A DNA stretch of 64,000 nt from positions 5,005 to 69,004 of the forward strand of contig CAYNJC010000007.1 of the NCBI GenBank assembly GCA_964397565.1, read 5' to 3'. The stretch comes from an uncultured bacterium. Its GTDB lineage: Bacteria > Auribacterota > UBA3054 > JAPLST01. Below the pieces are notes generated by a model. That model did no database searches. It worked only from the letters and a program-made list of their open reading frames with translations, and had not been told where the DNA came from. Below, in pieces: positions 13,655 through 54,980 of this stretch (the stretch's first letter is position 1; each line of letters begins with the position of its first letter). The position numbers and the translations under genes were made by a program.

Positions 13655-15542
13655 CTAGTGTCGCCGCCCGGCGGCGCGGCACCATAGCAGCAGCGCGGCG
13701 CAGGCGGTCAGCAGCGCCGGCTCGGGAATCACCGCGGTGGTTATGGCCCATTGCTTGGGCGGCACGGCCAGGGCCGCGGGCAGCAGCGGCGTCGTCTCGC
13801 TGGCTAGTGAGTAGAAATTCACATAATTCGTCTTGCTGGCCGGATTCCAGGCAACCAGCGTCGCATGGATGCCCTTGACAAACGCGGCGTTGAAGACATA
13901 GTCGTGATTGGCATCACTTGGCGCAACGGCGTGGCCGATGATCGTCCAGTCGGGCGGCCCGTGCTGTTCGATGGCGTCGAGAAAACTGGCGACGTAACTA
14001 ATGGTCAGCTCGGCCGGGTTGAGCGCGAAGTTGCCGGGATTGCTACCCAAGGTCGGATTGCTGAATCTTTGGTCGCCCGACATGAGCATGATCCACGGCG
14101 CTTGATAGGAGAAATTGGTGCCGATGGTCTGGGTGGTACAATTGGCAATCGCCATGTTGAGATAGAACTGCAGCGGCGTAACACCGGCGACGAACAAATT
14201 GCTCGAACCGACGTAGGGCACGGTCGCGTCCGGGTAATTGCCCAAGGCCTTCCGTGTACTGCCGCGCATTGGCCAGATGGTAGGCCTGAATGAATGCGGC
14301 CGCATTGGTGCGGTTCGCCGGGTAGTTGCGCTGGGTCGGCACGCTGGCGATGACCAGCCAGGTCTTGGCGGTGGGCGCCAGCGTCAAAAAATGATTCTGA
14401 AAGCCGCTATAGTTGTCGAGTGTAACATTCACCGCGGCGTTGCTGCGATAGTACACGGCCCACGTCGTCCAGTTGTCCTGAAAGCCGTTGGGATTGGCCT
14501 GCTTGTTTGATGGACTACTGTCGGGGAACGGGCAGTTTTGGTTGGCGTAGATCAGGAAGTACATGACGTCGCTGACGCCGGGGACAGGTTGCGGTGCCGT
14601 GCTGCCGAGCGTGCTCGTGCCTGATACGGTGCCGTGCCCGACGGCATCCGCGCTGGCATTGCGCAAGATCAGGTAGGGGATGCCGCGTGCTTCAATCCAA
14701 GTGAATGGCGCGCCTTGACAGACGCACATCTTGAGATACGTGCCTTGGCCTGGCTGGCCAAAGGCGGTCGTGACATAGGGATCGGCAGGATTCTGATAGA
14801 TGATGTCGGCATCAAAATCACCCATGCGGTCGACCAAGGTGCCCTCGGGACTCCAGGCGGGCAGGACGTCGAGCGGGCCGCCCGGCGGGGTGTTAGTCAT
14901 CGGTACCAAGCGCAAATCAGGCAGCAGGGGATTGGCAATAAAACCAAGCGGACTGCATTGCTTCCAGTAGGTTGCATTGGCCGGTGTCATCAGGCTCAGC
15001 ACATTGGTGGGCCATTGCGCGGCATTTGCGAGATACGGATACACACCACACAAACTAATGCCGCGGTCAAGAATGGCCTGGGCTTCGTTCTGGGCGGAGT
15101 GGGGTGGCGAGCTGTACGACAAGGAAAACGTCTGCAGGAAGACCGGGTGCTGCACGAAGTTGCCGGGAAACCACCCGCCGCCGATCGGATTGACGCAGGC
15201 GGCGTTGGTCCAGAAGCCGGCGGCGGACTCGGGCCCCGTCGAGGTCCAGAGATCCGGTTCGGCCTTGCCGGTGCCCCACAGCGCCCCACCCAGCCATGAA
15301 TGCGTGCGGTACGGCTGCGCCAGATTCGGCGTGGCGGCAACTGTGGCTGGTGCGGCCAGGCGCGGATAGATCACCGGATTGGGCGTGGTGGTCTGGAAGA
15401 ACGTCGCGCCTTGCTGAATGCGCGTGCCCCATGGATCATCGGGCGGCCACGCCGCGCGGCACACCAACTCCGGCATCACGACTAAGACAAGCATTGTGCA
15501 TAGTAACACGTACTGCATTGCAGCTGCTCGGCCGGATGTCAT
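13655..15542 (-). pseudogene. PEP-CTERM-anchored secreted protein interrupted by a single-nucleotide frameshift (or sequencing error)
   Basis: Track ORFs 14043..15542 and 13655..14305 overlap in different frames. Plausible sequence switches frame at ...ANARQYTEGLG | NYPDATVPYVGSSN, around the CCC run at 14241-14243. The combined span is 1888 nt (3n+1). The N-terminus is a signal peptide (MQYVLLCTMLVLVVMPELVCRAA). The C-terminus is IPEPALLTACAALLLWCRAAGRRH (PEP motif, TM, basic tail). AGGAGA precedes ATG 15542. Confidence 0.7.
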
Positions 15543-15595
15543 GACACGTTCTCCTGCTAGTGGTGAACTGTTATGCTATGGCACAATCCAGAAGC

Positions 15596-16303
15596 CTATT
15601 TCACCATGCCGACAAAGCCCATGAAGGCAATCGCCATCAAGCCGGCGATGACAAAGGCCAGCGGCATGCCGCGCAACGGCTTGGGCACGTCGCACAAGGC
15701 TAGGCGCTCGCGAATGCCGGACATCAGCAACAATGCGACCGTAAAGCCGATGCCACCGCCAAAACCATTGATAATCGCGAACAGGAAACTGTCCGGTTGC
15801 CCATAGCCAAGCTGTTTGCCGCCGATGGTCATGCCCTGAATATTCAGAATGGCGACGGCCAGCACGGCGCAATTGGTCGTGATCAGCGGCAGGTAAATGC
15901 CGAGTGCCGTGTACAGCGCCGGGCTGACTTTGCGAATGACCATCTCGACAAATTGCACCAGCACGGCAATGACGAGAATGAACGAGAGCGTGTCAAGAAA
16001 GCGCAAGTCGAAGTTTTTGAGCAGGTAGGCCTGCAACGCGGCGGCACCGCCGGTGGCGGGCGCATGGCCGAAGAGTTGGTACAGGACATTGGCCGTGCTG
16101 GGATACAGAAAAAAGTGATAGACAACCCAGGAGGCGGCGCTGGCCATGGTCATCACAAAAATAATGGCGAGCCCCATGCCGGTCGCCGACTTGCTGTCGT
16201 TCGAGACGCCCACGTACGGGCAATTGCCCAGAAACTTCGCGAAGACAAAGTTGTTGACGAAGATGGTCGAGAGCAGGACGAGGAGAATGGTGGCGATGGT
16301 CAT
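15596..16303 (-). CDS. rnfA: Rnf electron transport complex subunit A
   Basis: The sequence FVNNFVFAKFLGNCPYVGVS...GMGLAIIFVMT...ALYTALGIYLPLITTNCAVLAV...IRERL matches the RnfA/NqrE family. At 235 aa it is about 40 aa longer than typical RnfA because of internal insertions. Confidence 0.85.
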   Translation of the reverse strand: MTIATILLVLLSTIFVNNFVFAKFLGNCPYVGVSNDSKSATGMGLAIIFVMTMASAASWVVYHFFLYPSTANVLYQLFGHAPATGGAAALQAYLLKNFDLRFLDTLSFILVIAVLVQFVEMVIRKVSPALYTALGIYLPLITTNCAVLAVAILNIQGMTIGGKQLGYGQPDSFLFAIINGFGGGIGFTVALLLMSGIRERLALCDVPKPLRGMPLAFVIAGLMAIAFMGFVGMVK

Positions 16304-16305
16304 GG

Positions 16306-16372
16306 TGTGGTCGGTGCGTCGGTTGTCAGTGCGTCGGTGCGTCGGTTATCGGTGCGTCAGTGCGTCGGTGGG
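16306..16372. repeat. V-type stutter array (GGTGCGTC[A/G]GT words), left boundary of four-helix-bundle cassette
   Basis: The array reads GTGTGGTCGGTGCGTCGGTTGTCAGTGCGTCGGTGCGTCGGTTATCGGTGCGTCAGTGCGTCGGTGGGG. It starts 3 nt after the rnfA ATG region, and its complement encodes the tail (HRRTDAPITDAPTH*) of the cassette ORF. Confidence 0.8.
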
Positions 16373-16796
16373 GCGAGTGATGGCAGAAACTGTCAGCCTG
16401 AGCCATCATAGCATGCAGCATTTTTCCAATACTTTGGCATGTTGACAGTAGTTTATCTCGCGTGGCCATATCAATATAACCGCACCTCCACGCGATAAGG
16501 ATCCAATGTTGCGTTTCCAACTGTTCGGCGTCCGCATCAGTGAGTTTCGAGATGAAGTGTGCGATGTAGTTGCGCTTGCCCCATGCTTCCGCGATTGCAG
16601 CGCCAATGGCGCGCGATGAGCGCCTCGTTTGATCGGTAAGTGAATAGACTTCCTCACGGGGAAACTCTCGTGACAGAGTAAACATATCCATGGCGAACTC
16701 TTGGCTCACTTTGTAGACGTTAAGTTCGCTAAAAGATTGTGCAAGGCGCGTGTGCATTGCCTCCGCATCTTGAATTGTATCTAACAACGGGTTCAT
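16326..16796 (-). CDS. four-helix-bundle protein (23S rRNA intervening-sequence protein family, TIGR02436-like)
   Basis: From ATG 16796: ...VYKVSQEFAMDMFTLSREFPREEVYSLTDQTRRSSRAIGAAIAEAWGKRNYIAHFISKLTDADAEQLETQHWILIAWRCGYI. The FP+EE.Y.L..Q.RR...SI..NIAEG-like core is present. Local GC is lower. The track start at 16937 would overlap rnfE and is rejected. Confidence 0.8.
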   Translation of the reverse strand: MNPLLDTIQDAEAMHTRLAQSFSELNVYKVSQEFAMDMFTLSREFPREEVYSLTDQTRRSSRAIGAAIAEAWGKRNYIAHFISKLTDADAEQLETQHWILIAWRCGYIDMATRDKLLSTCQSIGKMLHAMMAQADSFCHHSPHRRTDAPITDAPTH

Positions 16797-16814
16797 CAAA
16801 GAAGCACCTGCTTG

Positions 16815-16855
16815 CTGATGCACTGACGTACCGATGCACTGATCACCGACGCACC
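16815..16855. repeat. V-type array in inverted orientation, right boundary of four-helix-bundle cassette
   Basis: The sequence CTGATGCACTGACGTACCGATGCACTGATCACCGACGCACC is, in reverse complement, about 80% identical over about 35 nt to 16311-16350. It abuts the rnfE stop (16855-16857). Confidence 0.75.
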
Positions 16856-17436
16856 TATGCCCGCTTGCCCATGTTCTTCCACGCCAGCACGAGGCCGAGC
16901 GTGAGAAATGCGCCGGGCGCCAGCACCATGACGCCAATCGGGCGCCAGCCGGGAAAGACGGTGAAGCCGAAGAATTTATTGGCGCCGAGCACTTCGCGAA
17001 TGCCGGCGATGATCACCAGTGCGATCAAGAAACCAATGCCCATGCCCAGGCCGTCCAGCAACGAACGCAGGGGCGTGACTTTTGCAGCAAAGGCTTCGGC
17101 GCGGCCGAGAATGATGCAGTTGACGACGATCAGTTTGATGAACAGGCCGATGGCTTTGCTGATATCAGGAAAATAGGCCGCCAAAACCAGATCCACGACC
17201 GTGACCAGGAATGCAATGATAATGATGTAGCACGGAATGCGGATCTCGGCGGGAATGACCTTGCGCACCAACGAGATTAGCACATTCGAGAGGGTCAAGA
17301 CGAAGATCGTCGAGACCCCCATGCCGATGGCGTTTTGCACGCTATTCGTGACAGCCAGGGCCGGGCATAAGCCGAGCGCCAGCACAAAGACCGGGTTCTT
17401 CTCCCAAAAGCCCTTGGTCAATTCATTGAGCAGCAT
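16855..17436 (-). CDS. rnfE: Rnf electron transport complex subunit E
   Basis: The sequence NPVFVLALGLCPALAVTNSVQNAIGMGVSTIFVL...LIVVNCIILGRAEAFA...GMGIGFLIALVIIAGIRE matches the RnfE/NqrD family. Confidence 0.88.
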   Translation of the reverse strand: MLLNELTKGFWEKNPVFVLALGLCPALAVTNSVQNAIGMGVSTIFVLTLSNVLISLVRKVIPAEIRIPCYIIIIAFLVTVVDLVLAAYFPDISKAIGLFIKLIVVNCIILGRAEAFAAKVTPLRSLLDGLGMGIGFLIALVIIAGIREVLGANKFFGFTVFPGWRPIGVMVLAPGAFLTLGLVLAWKNMGKRA

Positions 17437-17485
17437 GATGGTACCTTGGTAGAGTAGTCATAGGACCAGTAGCATTGATCGGTGG

Positions 17486-18139
17486 TCACTTGGCAGTGGC
17501 AGCGTGCGAGGCATGCCAGGCGAGAAAGGCAGCCACTGGTTCGCGCACGGCCTTGGTCACGGCTGCGCTGGTAATCGTTGCGCCGGAAATGGCCTCGATA
17601 CCAGTTGGCGCTTTTGTCTTTGTGACGACCAGGTCGGTGACGATCTTATTGGCGAATTGCGTTTGGAACGGCGGCAACTGCACGTGTGCGGCTGCCGGCG
17701 CAGCCGGGCGGAACAGGCCGGCAATGGCTTGCCACAGCGACTTCGTGGACGGCACGGCCTCGACTTCGGCGCCAAGGCCCGGCGTTTCGGCCTGGCTGAG
17801 CACTTTAATGCCGCGCAGCATGCCGTTGGTGCCGATCGCGCTGAGCACCCGCACTTGCGACTGATAGCCCTGCACGGCGTAATCCACTTCATAGCCAATG
17901 ATCGTGCCGGCCGCGTCAATGGCCTCGTAGTAAACCACCGCCTTGCCATTGAGTGGGAATGTCATTTCCGCGCTGAAGCGGGCGGCATCGGGCATCAGCA
18001 GTTGTTGCCCTTCGGTCAGTGACTTGCGCTGGGCCGCGGCGATTTTATCGCGGGTCAATTCATTGACGACATATAAGCCGACCCCAGCCACGCTGGAAAT
18101 GACGAGCAGAACCACGGCATAGTGCAGCATTTTCTTCAT
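17486..18139 (-). CDS. rnfG: Rnf electron transport complex subunit G (FMN-binding)
   Basis: An N-terminal TM is followed by an FMN_bind domain with the motif GIEAISGATITSAAV (the covalent FMN threonine motif SGAT). 217 aa. It overlaps rnfD by 4 nt. Confidence 0.85.
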   Translation of the reverse strand: MKKMLHYAVVLLVISSVAGVGLYVVNELTRDKIAAAQRKSLTEGQQLLMPDAARFSAEMTFPLNGKAVVYYEAIDAAGTIIGYEVDYAVQGYQSQVRVLSAIGTNGMLRGIKVLSQAETPGLGAEVEAVPSTKSLWQAIAGLFRPAAPAAAHVQLPPFQTQFANKIVTDLVVTKTKAPTGIEAISGATITSAAVTKAVREPVAAFLAWHASHAATAK

Positions 18140-19110
18140 GGGCGACTCTTGGAAAGATGGGTACCAAAGACACGGCGCGGGAAGGCCCGGTCAAGCCACG
18201 GCACGGTCGTGTTCATAATGAGAATGGCGTACGAAACGCCTTCGGGATAGCCGCCGAATTTGCGGATCAGGAAGGTCAGCAGGCCGCAGCCGACACCAAA
18301 GACCAGTTGGCCACGCGGCGTGAACGGGCTGGTGACCATGTCGGTGGCCATGAACCATGCCCCGAGCATGACGCCGCCGGCGAGGATGGCGACCAGCGGA
18401 TCACCGCCGCCGATGATGCTCGCCAGCGCCAGCGTCGCCAGGTACGTTACGGGAATATACCAGGAAATGATGCCGCGCACGAGCATGAAGATGCCGCCGG
18501 CCAGCAGGAGCGCCGCGGACGTTTCGCCGATACAGCCGCCGATATTGCCGATGAACAGGTCTTTGTAGAGCATGGCTTTGTCGCCGAAGTGCTGCACGAG
18601 GTAGTCCAGGCCGTGTTCTTTGAACATCATCAGCGGGGTGGCCGTAGTCGTGGCGTCAATCTGTGCGGCGGCACCGACAATCTTCCACGTGGTCATATCC
18701 TTTGGGTAGGCTGCCAGCAGAAAGGCGCGGCCGACCAGGGCCGGGTTGAATATGTTGCAGCCCAAGCCGCCGAAGCAGTGCTTGCCGATGGCCATGCCGG
18801 CGATCGTGCCGATGATCGGAATCCACCACGCGATGACCGGCGGAATGTTGCAGGCGACCAGCATGCCCATCACGACCGCGCTGCCGTCACCCAGCGTGAT
18901 GCGCTGACGCCGCACGGCTTGGCAGGCGGCCTCGGTGAGGGCGGCGGTGGCGACGCAGATGCCGATCAGGGCTGCGGAATACCAGCCGTAAATGTAGACG
19001 CTATACGCGCAGGCCGGCACGAGCGCGGCCACGACTGACCACATGATGCGCGGCACGGAATCGTTGGCGCGCAGGTGCGGCGAGGATGACGTGGAAAGGA
19101 GACCAGCCAT
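18136..19110 (-). CDS. rnfD: Rnf electron transport complex subunit D
   Basis: 324-aa polytopic protein: SSSPHLRANDSVPRIMW..., FNPALVGRAFLLAAYP, IDATTTATPL, GETSALLLAGG. The size fits RnfD (about 320-350 aa) rather than NqrB (about 410 aa). Confidence 0.85.
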   Translation of the reverse strand: MAGLLSTSSSPHLRANDSVPRIMWSVVAALVPACAYSVYIYGWYSAALIGICVATAALTEAACQAVRRQRITLGDGSAVVMGMLVACNIPPVIAWWIPIIGTIAGMAIGKHCFGGLGCNIFNPALVGRAFLLAAYPKDMTTWKIVGAAAQIDATTTATPLMMFKEHGLDYLVQHFGDKAMLYKDLFIGNIGGCIGETSAALLLAGGIFMLVRGIISWYIPVTYLATLALASIIGGGDPLVAILAGGVMLGAWFMATDMVTSPFTPRGQLVFGVGCGLLTFLIRKFGGYPEGVSYAILIMNTTVPWLDRAFPRRVFGTHLSKSRP

Positions 19111-33404: not shown

Positions 33405-34771
33405 ACAACGTGCCGCGCGTGACGCTCAAGCCGGGCAAGGCCAAACCATTTTGGTGCGGCCACCCGTTGGTCTTCTCCGGCGCGGTGCAGTCGGTTGACG
33501 CCGGCATTGAGACCGGCACGATCGTGGCCGTGCGGGATGCGCACGGGACCCAGATCGGGTTGGGGGTTTTCAATACCCATTCGCAATATCGGGTGCGCAT
33601 TCTCAGCCGCGCGGCGGCGGGGGAGTGCGATGCGACGATCGAGAGTTTTGTCGCCCGCCATCTGCGTGACGCCCGTGCCCTGCGCCAATTGCTGCAACTG
33701 CCGTCCGCAGCCACCAACGCATACCGCGTGTTGAACAGCGAGGGCGATGGCTGCTCCGGCCTGACGATTGACCTGTATGGCGACACCGCGGTCGTGGCGT
33801 CGAGCGCCTATTGGACTGAACAGAACCGGGCGGTGATCACGCGCGTGATCCAGGCGGAGCTGCAACCGGCCCAGGTGCTCTGGCGCCCGGTGCATCGCCC
33901 GCTCGAACAGGACGGTTGGAGCACCGAGTCCGCTGGCCTTGCCAGTCCCGCCATCGGCGGGATGGGAGCGGCCTCCGCGCCGCGATCTGCCACTGCATCA
34001 CCGGATGCCGCCGACGCCCACATTGCAGAGGCAGGGTGCGTCAGCTGCTTGGAGTCCCGCCAACGGCGGGATGATCAGTGCATCGGTGCGTCAGTATCTG
34101 CAACTGAAAACCAAAAAACGAAAACTGAAAACTTCGCCGCAGAAGCGCCAGTGCTGGTGCGCGAAAACGGATTACAGTTCACCGTTGATCTGCACGGTCA
34201 GAAAACAGGATTCTACTGTGATCAGCGCGACAATCGCGCCTGGCTTGAAACCCTGGCGCGCGGGCGCACAGTACTGGATGCATTTTGCTTCACGGGCGGT
34301 TTTGGACTGTATGCCGCGCGGGGTGGCGCGACGCGCGTGGTGGGCGTGGATTCGTCCGCACCGGCCATTGCGTTGGCGCGCAAAAATGCGGCGGCCAATC
34401 AGGTCGGCATCGAGCTGTACTGCGCCGACGTGCTCGAATATCTGGGCACGGCACGCGATTTTGACACGATCATTCTTGATCCGCCGAAACTGGCGGGCAC
34501 GGCCGAGCATGTCACCCGCGCGCTGCGTTATTATCGCCATTTGTGCGGGCTGGCGTTGCGGGCGTTGCGGCCACCGGGCATGCTGGTGGTCTGCTCCTGC
34601 TCCGCGGCACTGGGCTTTGAGGCCTTGCAGCACGTCATTCGCGAAACGGCGGTCGAAGAGCAGCGCACGGCGCAGATTGTGCGCGTCAGTGGCGCGGCGC
34701 CGGATCATCCGGTCTTGCCGGCCTTTCCGGAAGGCCAGTATCTGACCTGTGTCTGGGTCGCGGTCAGCTAG
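33401..34771 (+). CDS. rlmI: class I SAM-dependent rRNA (cytosine-C5) methyltransferase, RlmI-like, with ~60-70 aa internal insertion
   Basis: The N-terminus reads VTLKPGKAKPFWCGHPLVFSGAV (PUA-like). The MTase core reads GQKTGFYCDQRDNR...LDAFCFTGGFGLYAARGGA..VVGVDSS...DTIILDPP...HPV..AFPEGQYLT. The protein is 456 aa against about 396 aa for E. coli RlmI (from memory). ATGA overlap with nifS. Confidence 0.85.
   Translation: MNNVPRVTLKPGKAKPFWCGHPLVFSGAVQSVDAGIETGTIVAVRDAHGTQIGLGVFNTHSQYRVRILSRAAAGECDATIESFVARHLRDARALRQLLQLPSAATNAYRVLNSEGDGCSGLTIDLYGDTAVVASSAYWTEQNRAVITRVIQAELQPAQVLWRPVHRPLEQDGWSTESAGLASPAIGGMGAASAPRSATASPDAADAHIAEAGCVSCLESRQRRDDQCIGASVSATENQKTKTENFAAEAPVLVRENGLQFTVDLHGQKTGFYCDQRDNRAWLETLARGRTVLDAFCFTGGFGLYAARGGATRVVGVDSSAPAIALARKNAAANQVGIELYCADVLEYLGTARDFDTIILDPPKLAGTAEHVTRALRYYRHLCGLALRALRPPGMLVVCSCSAALGFEALQHVIRETAVEEQRTAQIVRVSGAAPDHPVLPAFPEGQYLTCVWVAVS
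33945..34132. repeat. repeat-module composite embedded in-frame in the rlmI-like CDS
   Basis: Modules: H palindrome GTCCCGCCATCGGCGGGAT (33945-33963); 32-nt block TCAGCTGCTTGGAGTCCCGCCAACGGCGGGAT (34041-34072; 30/32 identical to 27441-27472); V word TCAGTGCATCGGTGCGTCAGT (34075-34095); W array CTGCAACTGAAAACCAAAAAACGAAAACTGAAAAC (34098-34132). Confidence 0.85.
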
Positions 34772-54797: not shown

Positions 54798-54822
54798 AAC
54801 TCCGTTCGCGGCGAACGGAGTT
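54798..54822. other. perfect GC-rich hairpin 29 nt downstream of the FGE-domain gene
   Basis: AACTCCGTTCG-CGG-CGAACGGAGTT: an 11-bp stem with no T-run after it. Confidence 0.7.
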
Positions 54823-54826
54823 AAGG

Positions 54827-54916
54827 TTGGGTAAACTGCCGCGCGACCAGAAGTTTCTGTTGGCTGACCGGATCGAAGTGCAGCGCAAATACAGAGACTA
54901 TATCCGACAGAAGTAA
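54827..54916 (+). pseudogene. 29-codon fragment resembling the helix-2 region of DGR accessory protein Avd (four-helix-bundle superfamily)
   Basis: (TTG)GKLPRDQKFLLADRIEVQRKYRDYIRQK*. LPRDQKFLLADRI resembles the LPRDHKF.LGDRI segment I recall from cyanobacterial Avd proteins and the FPK.E.Y.L motif of IVS proteins. An in-frame TAG lies 33 nt upstream, so only a fragment exists. Confidence 0.3.
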
Positions 54917-54947: not shown

Positions 54948-54980
54948 AAATTCGTTCGTGCACGAACGAATTTCCTTTTT
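54948..54980 (+). terminator. intrinsic terminator-like palindrome
   Basis: AAATTCGTTCG-TGCA-CGAACGAATTT followed by CCTTTTT. It shares the CGTTCG...CGAACG core with the hairpin at 54798. Confidence 0.55.

Follow-up and report, generated by a model that had tools for sequence, protein, structure and literature searches.

Between the genes rnfE and rnfA, in the 64,000-nucleotide stretch of bacterial DNA analysed here (the window, taken at its full length), lies a spacer that carries a small gene of its own, enclosed by inverted arrays of a tandemly repeated octamer. The window is part of G000, the genome under study (4.47 Mb in 106 contigs, 89.7% complete), and the protein encoded in the spacer is referred to as P0001. 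The features concerned, beginning with rnfE and closing with the remaining genes of the cluster, are as follows:

16855-17436, minus strand: rnfE, 193 aa (TIGR01948, 237 bits; NF009070, 246 bits; PF02508)
16857-16855, minus strand: rnfE stop codon TAG, the G of which is the first paired base of the long stem
16815-16855, minus strand: 5′ arm, tandem 8-mers GGTGCGTC-GGTGATCA-GTGCATC-GGTACGTC-AGTGCATC (paired part 16817-16855; from the repeat search and the minimum-free-energy (MFE) and centroid folds)
16326-16796, minus strand: open reading frame (ORF) for a PF05635/TIGR02436 four-helix-bundle protein, 156 aa (from profile matches, dN/dS and relatives in the PDB)
16306-16372, minus strand: 3′ arm, tandem 8-mers ACCGACGC/ACTGACGC, complementary to the 5′ arm (paired part 16313-16366)
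15596-16303, minus strand: rnfA, 235 aa (TIGR01943, 235 bits; NCBIfam and Pfam)
17486-18139, minus strand: rnfG (NCBIfam and Pfam)
18136-19110, minus strand: rnfD (NCBIfam and Pfam)

The two flanking genes belong to one co-oriented cluster on the minus strand (19110-15596; rnfD, rnfG, rnfE and rnfA by NCBIfam), which identifies them as members of an Rnf operon (rnfCDGEAB). The spacer between them (16304-16854, 551 bp) has a GC content of 52.3%, and the core of its ORF 49.5%, vs. 57% in rnfA and rnfE and 61.4% in the window; at third codon positions (GC3), the ORF reaches 0.55 and the rnf genes 0.79. The ORF matches PF05635 over profile positions 2-105 of 106 (E 2.8e-27; 95.5 bits, cut-off 33.8) and TIGR02436 with 87.5 bits (cut-off 24), i.e., it encodes a member of this four-helix-bundle family, and its relatives in the PDB, 2RLD and 2GSC, have five chains per entry in each case. 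Its last ~14 codons and its TAA stop fall within the 3′ arm, and its conserved start may be the ATG at 16757 (MHTRL...). An earlier note on this DNA, made from the sequence alone, had described a lower-GC insert of 551 bp, a TIGR02436-like four-helix-bundle ORF and inverted arrays at both ends, and all three descriptions agree with the coordinates and scores obtained here. An Rfam search of 15500-17500 matched no family. The insert does not sit in helix 25 or 45 of a 23S rRNA, its site being the rnfE/rnfA joint, and 23S rRNA is absent from the 89.7%-complete assembly.

Both arms are built from the octamer GGTGCGTC(R), which recurs with an 8-nt period and in inverted orientation at the two ends. 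The repeat search returned inverted pairs of 40 nt (16331-16370 with 16821-16860, 80%) and of 51 nt (16296-16346 with 16822-16872, 75%), as well as a direct repeat family of five copies at 8/15-nt spacing. In the RNA fold of 16290-16870 (minus strand), 16817-16855 and 16313-16366 form a stem of 41 pairs, all of them Watson-Crick, in the MFE and the centroid structure alike (z-score -3.07; none of 100 shuffles folds as well). The stem starts with the G of the rnfE stop, and 9 nt separate its end from the ATG of rnfA. In keeping with the earlier proposal that the terminal repeats pair in the transcribed strand, this long-range stem folds in all four orthologous versions, i.e., in three intact copies and in a remnant found in genome G005. 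The 5′ arm is conserved in the orthologs L117 and L120. In the lineage whose protein is 87% identical to P0001, two 5′-arm units have changed from GTGCGTC to GTGCGCC, matched in the 3′ arm by a change from GACGCAC to GGCGCAC; in the 71% lineage (L120), the 3′ array has expanded to ~130 nt and encodes a tail of PTHRHTD repeats. To judge from these alignments, the two arms co-evolve, changes in one being compensated in the other. We consider it probable, if some way from secure, that the spacer is a hairpin cassette of the intervening-sequence (IVS) type, i.e., a PF05635 gene between inverted arrays of an 8-mer, situated in a protein-coding operon.

The state of the same joint in related genomes supports the view, also taken in the earlier note, that the cassette is a discrete insertion. 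In eight genomes of a rumen genus, rnfE and rnfA overlap in an ATGA; more distant relatives have 4-65 nt between the two genes, G002 has a 36-nt spacer with an AGGAGG Shine-Dalgarno (SD) sequence, and G008 has 125 nt with a solo TTAATAG array. The joint of G005 holds a 246-nt remnant, consisting of the C-terminal half of a PF05635 ORF (LETQHW...) and of arms (GGTAGTC-GGTAATC and (GATTACC)n) that still pair. The orthologous rnf region is not contained in the assembly of G001, a genome of the same genus as G000. Within a set of 5.8 billion proteins, the closest homologs of P0001 are P0002 (87%) and P0003 (71%), both from metagenome contigs on which their genes likewise separate rnfE from rnfA, and both with 5′ arms that begin right after the rnfE stop (TAG followed by GTGCGYCGGT...). 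A maximum-likelihood tree of RnfG+E+A unites G000, these two metagenome lineages and G005 (ultrafast bootstrap 91), with G002 outside (99) and the ATGA-overlap genus further out. The cassette is thus present in four lineages of one Rnf clade, intact in three of them and as a truncated but still armed remnant in the fourth, which fits a single gain, and the empty sites together with the tree placement make the filled state the derived one. The simplest history that these sequences suggest would be one insertion into a tight rnfE-rnfA junction in the ancestor of the clade, followed by vertical descent and by truncation in G005; the grounds for a single gain are the site, the arm words and the tree.

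Measured against the 87% lineage, the ratio of nonsynonymous to synonymous divergence (dN/dS) is 0.073 in the ORF core, 0.072 in rnfE and 0.071 in rnfA (dS about 0.5-0.85), and by this measure purifying selection keeps the cassette ORF as strongly as it keeps rnfE and rnfA. Such selection, as well as vertical retention in three lineages, is what favours the idea of a domesticated operon member, whose four-helix-bundle protein would serve Rnf (in assembly or regulation) and whose stem would set the ratio of rnfA to rnfCDGE. Moreover, rnfA in the filled site has no recognisable SD in the 9 nt after the stem, whereas its counterpart in the empty-site relative G002 has AGGAGG, so that translation of rnfA may depend on the cassette. 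We nevertheless regard domestication as improbable: PF05635 genes stand at many unrelated junctions of G000, the nearest relatives of the cassette in other phyla adjoin unrelated genes, and the cassette survives only in truncated form in G005 and is missing from both G002 and the rumen genus, all of which have a complete rnf operon. Base composition likewise speaks against it, as the cassette genes, including the orthologs in L117 and L120, have a GC3 of 0.49-0.67 beside rnf genes of 0.80-0.84, i.e., even the vertically inherited orthologs have not ameliorated. Across G000, mean GC3 is 0.59 for PF05635 cassette ORFs and 0.64 for those of a second gene family, GxxExxY (TIGR04256).

G000 has about 20 such cassettes, PF05635 and GxxExxY taken together and the rnf insert among them, in line with the earlier expectation that further genomic copies of the protein and of the word arrays would be found. 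The genome has 18 PF05635 matches, 14 of them solid, and six GxxExxY genes. The PF05635 load follows lineage in the assemblies compared, with 15 matches in G001, 13 in G005, 14 in G008, one in G002 and none found in nine genomes of the rumen genus. Most cassettes point the same way as both neighbouring genes and have arms that abut stop and start codons, their ORFs regularly terminate within the 3′ array, and their 7- or 8-nt units are cassette-specific (AGGTTTT, GGTCAAG, CGTTCAT, GATGAAT, CACGAAGA and others). Flanks were compared by local alignment scores in place of RNAduplex energies, which we rejected as a discriminator because GC-rich 110-mers give about -45 kcal/mol with any partner. 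In inverted orientation, the 5′ flank scores highest against the 3′ flank of its own gene in 11 of the 14 PF05635 genes and in five of the six GxxExxY genes (the sixth scores 27, just under one non-cognate pair); over the 14 PF05635 copies, cognate flanks have a mean score of 34.8 vs. 15.2 +/- 3.8 for non-cognate ones. When G000 is pooled with 60 loci of related genomes and 80 from metagenomes, 127 of the 149 PF05635 loci with enough flank are armed.

Short tandem arrays are abundant in this genome (729 of period 7 and 389 of period 8 in 4.47 Mb, by TRF), and solo arrays occur at junctions, e.g., in the rnf spacer of G008 and at C4:150190 of G000 (contig:position, here and below). On these grounds one might propose a coincidence, in which slippage made the arrays and a small ORF came to lie between two of them by chance. 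We find this very hard to credit, since the cognate-arm statistics already contradict it, as do the high share of armed loci, the rarity of opposite-polarity arm matches and the conservation and compensation of arms among orthologs.

Cassettes also turn over at fixed junctions. The flanks of G001 cassettes, 85-94% identical to their counterparts, were mapped onto G000, and both flanks could be placed at seven junctions. Three of the seven hold clearly orthologous cassettes (87-90% amino acid identity, same arm words); C10:32558 of G000 is occupied in both genomes, and at C1:75719 the PF05635 proteins are only 58% identical and the arms differ. One junction has been swapped, with a GxxExxY gene between CGCAAAGG arms in G000 (C9:60234-60590) vs. 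a PF05635 gene between GGAGTGA arms in G001 (C87:11882-12142), and at another a gene-less stretch with two unrelated solo arrays in G000 (C4:150068-150338) faces a PF05635 cassette with TGGAAGAA arms in G001. These differing contents within one genus indicate that cassettes are gained, lost and replaced and that the arms travel with the gene. The swapped junction follows a [2Fe-2S]-subunit-like gene. A second truncated cassette occurs in G005, with a PGM-like gene and dxr as its neighbours (C365:2809-3126); its 5′ arm, CAGTGCATCGGTACGTGAGTG, is nearly identical to that of the rnf cassette, its ORF fragment begins ISKLTDADAEQMETQHW, and its counterpart in G000 is a 25-nt spacer (C12:79797-79822). 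This spacer begins ACGCACCGCACC, which resembles the 3′-arm unit GACGCACCGACGCACC and may be either the footprint of a lost cassette or chance.

Gene-less hairpins with arms of this kind form dispersed multi-copy families with conserved loops. Those with CACGAAGA/TCTTCGTG octamers share a conserved loop of 85-116 nt at at least 15 loci (e.g., C22:67752 and C37:31139), two of them, C1:36214-36377 and C1:40522-40685, being 100% identical at a distance of 4.3 kb, and a family with AATGATG heptamer arms occupies at least 12. PF05635 or GxxExxY fragments were sought in 36 short-loop hairpins of G000 and none was found, and an origin of the gene-less hairpins as decayed cassettes is therefore not demonstrable in this genome.

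Contents that differ at the same junction between congeners, including a swap between two unrelated gene families, and hairpins dispersed in many copies are readily accommodated by an element that acts at the level of DNA. The arms would then be hairpins, cruciforms or binding-site arrays for insertion, excision and exchange, carried out by the protein that the cassette encodes (the four-helix bundle, or GxxExxY as a PD-(D/E)XK-like nuclease) or by a trans factor, and the mRNA fold would be a by-product in which RNase III had no designed role. Paired octamer arrays of Geobacter are IS110 insertion targets (PMC2700814), and Ssn nucleases are framed by repeats that they cut (PMC11893778); a lack of sense-strand bias in arm mismatches and an arm core kept with fixed polarity across 50-65% protein identity, both presented below, would also suit such an element. 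Against it stand the cassettes' overwhelming co-orientation with operons and the abutment of arms on stop and start codons, which fit a constraint on the transcript, as well as the persistence of the rnf cassette in place over a divergence of dS at least 0.5, the absence of a target duplication when filled and empty sites are compared, and the short-loop hairpins devoid of ORF fragments. For PF05635, moreover, we know of no catalytic motif or activity. All told, we see in a DNA-level element a possible but doubtful explanation.

Within the subfamily of P0001, the arm word itself is conserved. Inverted arms are present at 66 of 76 metagenome loci that encode relatives 50-65% identical to P0001, and their 5′ unit always takes the form C-R-G-T-R-N-N (CGGTAAT, CAGTGAT, CAGTAGC, CGGTGGC, etc.), the variable positions following the GC content of the organism; the genome-derived relatives L144-L146 have arms of the same form. 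Over 328 units from 67 armed subfamily loci, the C before RGT is found in 85%, the R in 95% and the R after it in 91%. Arm polarity is fixed (opposite-polarity matches about 1-4%), and in the rnf-cassette lineage both arms are built on an 8-nt variant of the unit, CRGTGCRT. The more alike two proteins are, the more alike their arms tend to be when compared in the same polarity (Spearman 0.56, a value reached in none of 500 permutations). Outside the subfamily, only 7% of pairs at 55-65% protein identity share arms, and on this sampling the conserved arm core holds for the P0001 subfamily and not for PF05635 as a whole.

The C-R-G-T-R core hints at a further role of the arms, as a site recognised by its sequence, most probably by the cassette's own protein. 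Together with the junction swaps, the conserved core points to arms that are recognised as a sequence, possibly as DNA; it is the lack of a sense-strand G·U excess among arm mismatches, given below, that argues against a purely RNA-level reading. In its widest form, this line of thought makes PF05635 and GxxExxY cassettes the interchangeable cargo of one junction-targeting mobile system, with the arms as its functional ends: each protein lineage would recognise its own arm word (C-R-G-T-R at 7-8-nt spacing), recognition of the hairpin would drive insertion, replacement and loss at stop/start joints, and the IVSs of 23S rRNA would be the same elements in rRNA. We put this forward tentatively, as a conjecture that may well prove wrong.

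For the rnf cassette, the hairpin-cassette reading implies a specific behaviour of the transcript. The arms would form a ~41-bp duplex in rnf mRNA, whose base would set the rnfE stop and the rnfA start within 9 nt and thereby lessen the polar effect of the insert. By analogy with rRNA IVSs, this duplex is a predicted substrate of RNase III, and its cleavage would cut the mRNA between rnfE and rnfA, which might uncouple rnfA in the way that the earlier note proposed. Such processing is plausible given the size and regularity of the stem, the presence of an rnc gene in G000 and the RNase III cleavage of the IVS stem in Coxiella. The cassette protein would be made from uncut transcripts, its translation running into the 3′ arm and melting that arm.

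Several points weigh against this reading of the cassette. A cut in the stem would deprive the ORF of its stop codon, bringing processing and expression into conflict, and both the mRNA cleavage and even the co-transcription of rnfE and rnfA are steps that we infer. Mismatches in the arms of 19 cassettes amount to 19 G·U in the sense vs. 31 in the antisense direction, i.e., these mismatch types carry no signal of selection on sense RNA in particular, and only 3 of 143 stem pairs are G·U, so that complementarity may be kept at the DNA level. Beyond the subfamily, loci whose proteins are 55-80% identical do not have conserved arm units, which weakens any general rule that a protein reads its own arm. 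As for the history of the site, the half-ORF of G005 is not closest to P0001 (45%, vs. up to 60% to other subfamily members), so that this joint may have received the cassette twice, by independent insertions. The comparison of filled and empty sites revealed no target-site duplication, no cassette movement was seen among near-identical genomes, and no transposase or integrase was seen, with none in the cassette, a trans-acting factor not having been searched for.

Further observations concern the remainder of the window and of the genome. The earlier note had reported a second, degraded family member at 54827-54916, bracketed by palindromes, and of this the palindromes stand and the family assignment does not: the 29-aa ORF has no match in Pfam (E<=10), NCBIfam (E<=1) or a local hidden Markov model, and the two palindromes, at 54799-54824 (AAACTCCGTTCGC..GCGAACGGAGTT) and 54950-54975 (AAATTCGTTCGTGCACGAACGAATTT), are real, 11 bp long and each self-contained, the second being followed by CCTTTTT, in which form it looks like an ordinary terminator. 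At ~34040-34100 of the window (C7:39044-39100) there is a further ACTGACGCACCGATGCACTGATC-type array like the rnf arms, interrupted by a ~24-nt small dispersed repeat, CCGCCGNTGGCGGGACTCCAAGCAGC, that has at least 70 copies in the genome and is nearly always nested in heptamer arrays; we take it to resemble the cyanobacterial small dispersed repeats nested in short tandemly repeated repetitive (STRR) arrays. Just upstream of the window, a PF05635 cassette with GAACGAT/ATCGTTC arms occupies the contig start (C7:1-472), and since several contigs have such arrays at an end, the arrays seem to interrupt the assembly. Four proteins of 240-300 aa in G000 (at C2:6617, C4:129634, C3:43600 and C4:16739) match PF05635 in part (profile positions 8-73), carry the motif RSRTxDQMxQAARSGxQNIAEGS and low-complexity tails, have no flanking arrays, and appear to be a distinct subfamily. 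RnfA, with 235 aa against a family model of 190 positions, matches that model in two separate parts, pointing to an insert of ~40 residues behind residue ~56, a trait common to all relatives in the order.

To our knowledge, the function of the very large TIGR02436/PF05635 four-helix-bundle family is unknown, as is the origin of rRNA IVSs some 35 years after their discovery, and we know of no explanation for the excess of 7-8-nt tandem repeats in many bacteria; the two family accessions are scarcely mentioned in the literature that we searched. The rnf locus joins these three puzzles at one datable site. It adds a dated insertion with polarity, selection estimates, changes in one arm that are compensated in the other, a repeat period that has gone from 7 to 8 in both arms, swaps within the genus that include PF05635/GxxExxY and a conserved arm core for one subfamily, with the decayed sister copy of G005 as part of the evidence at the site. 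It also provides a testable ligand hypothesis for P0001, namely CRGTR repeats, with units such as CGGTGCGT or CGGTAAT. If cassettes do routinely cut or re-couple operon transcripts, operon architecture would have, in many phyla, a layer that annotation has missed.

Among known systems, the accessory protein Avd of diversity-generating retroelements (DGRs) had been named in the earlier note as a structural relative, a link that reduces to distant homology within the same fold class (bAvd). P0001 falls below both curated cut-offs (NF033474, 20.5 bits vs. 80; PF22296, 29.8 vs. 40), and we rejected an identity with DGR Avd, the cassette having no adjacent reverse transcriptase and no template/variable repeat. 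A search of the G000 assembly for reverse transcriptases (PF00078) found none, which leaves both a DGR-like mechanism and retro-mobility through a reverse transcriptase in trans unsupported. The REP/REPIN-RAYT and Ssn-NTS systems (PMC11893778) share with the cassettes a small gene flanked by a repeat that it possibly recognises and gene-less copies dispersed at gene boundaries. They differ in that other protein families are involved, PF05635 being without known catalytic activity, and in that the tandem arrays here vary per cassette and do not represent one genome-wide repeat.

Inverted heptamer arrays of GGGAATC in Xanthomonas and the paired octa/heptanucleotide "global regulator sites" of Geobacter metallireducens have been read as G-quadruplex formers or protein-binding sites (PMC4692102; PMC2700814). 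Like the arms described here, they are intergenic 7-8-nt tandem arrays in convergent pairs on opposite strands, lie between co-oriented genes near the end of the upstream ORF, and vary between close relatives. No enclosed gene family has been named for them, however, whereas the pairs studied here are cassette-specific and enclose PF05635 or GxxExxY.

The ORF-bearing IVSs of 23S rRNA (Coxiella burnetii helix 45, Leptospira, Brucella; PMC4990558) also encode a PF05635 protein, a four-helix bundle that is a pentamer in 2GSC, within an element of about 430-550 nt. They share terminal inverted repeats that form a long stem (28 bp in Coxiella, ~41 bp here), short tandem repeats beside the ORF and the presence of an RNase III gene. 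In Coxiella, RNase III cuts the 28-bp stem, and tandem heptamers precede the S23p ORF (Warrier et al., 2016, PMC4990558). The differences lie in the host site, which is here a protein-coding operon junction instead of an rRNA helix; in the arms, which are whole 8-mer arrays, unlike the few heptamers on one side of the Coxiella stem; in the ORF, which is decaying and probably untranslated in Coxiella but under purifying selection here; and in RNase III excision, which belongs to the rRNA elements and is a prediction for the rnf cassette. Given these shared traits, and as the earlier note had anticipated in likening the build of the insert to elements whose stems are cut by RNase III, the closest published match to the rnf cassette is the ORF-bearing 23S rRNA IVS (PMC4990558).

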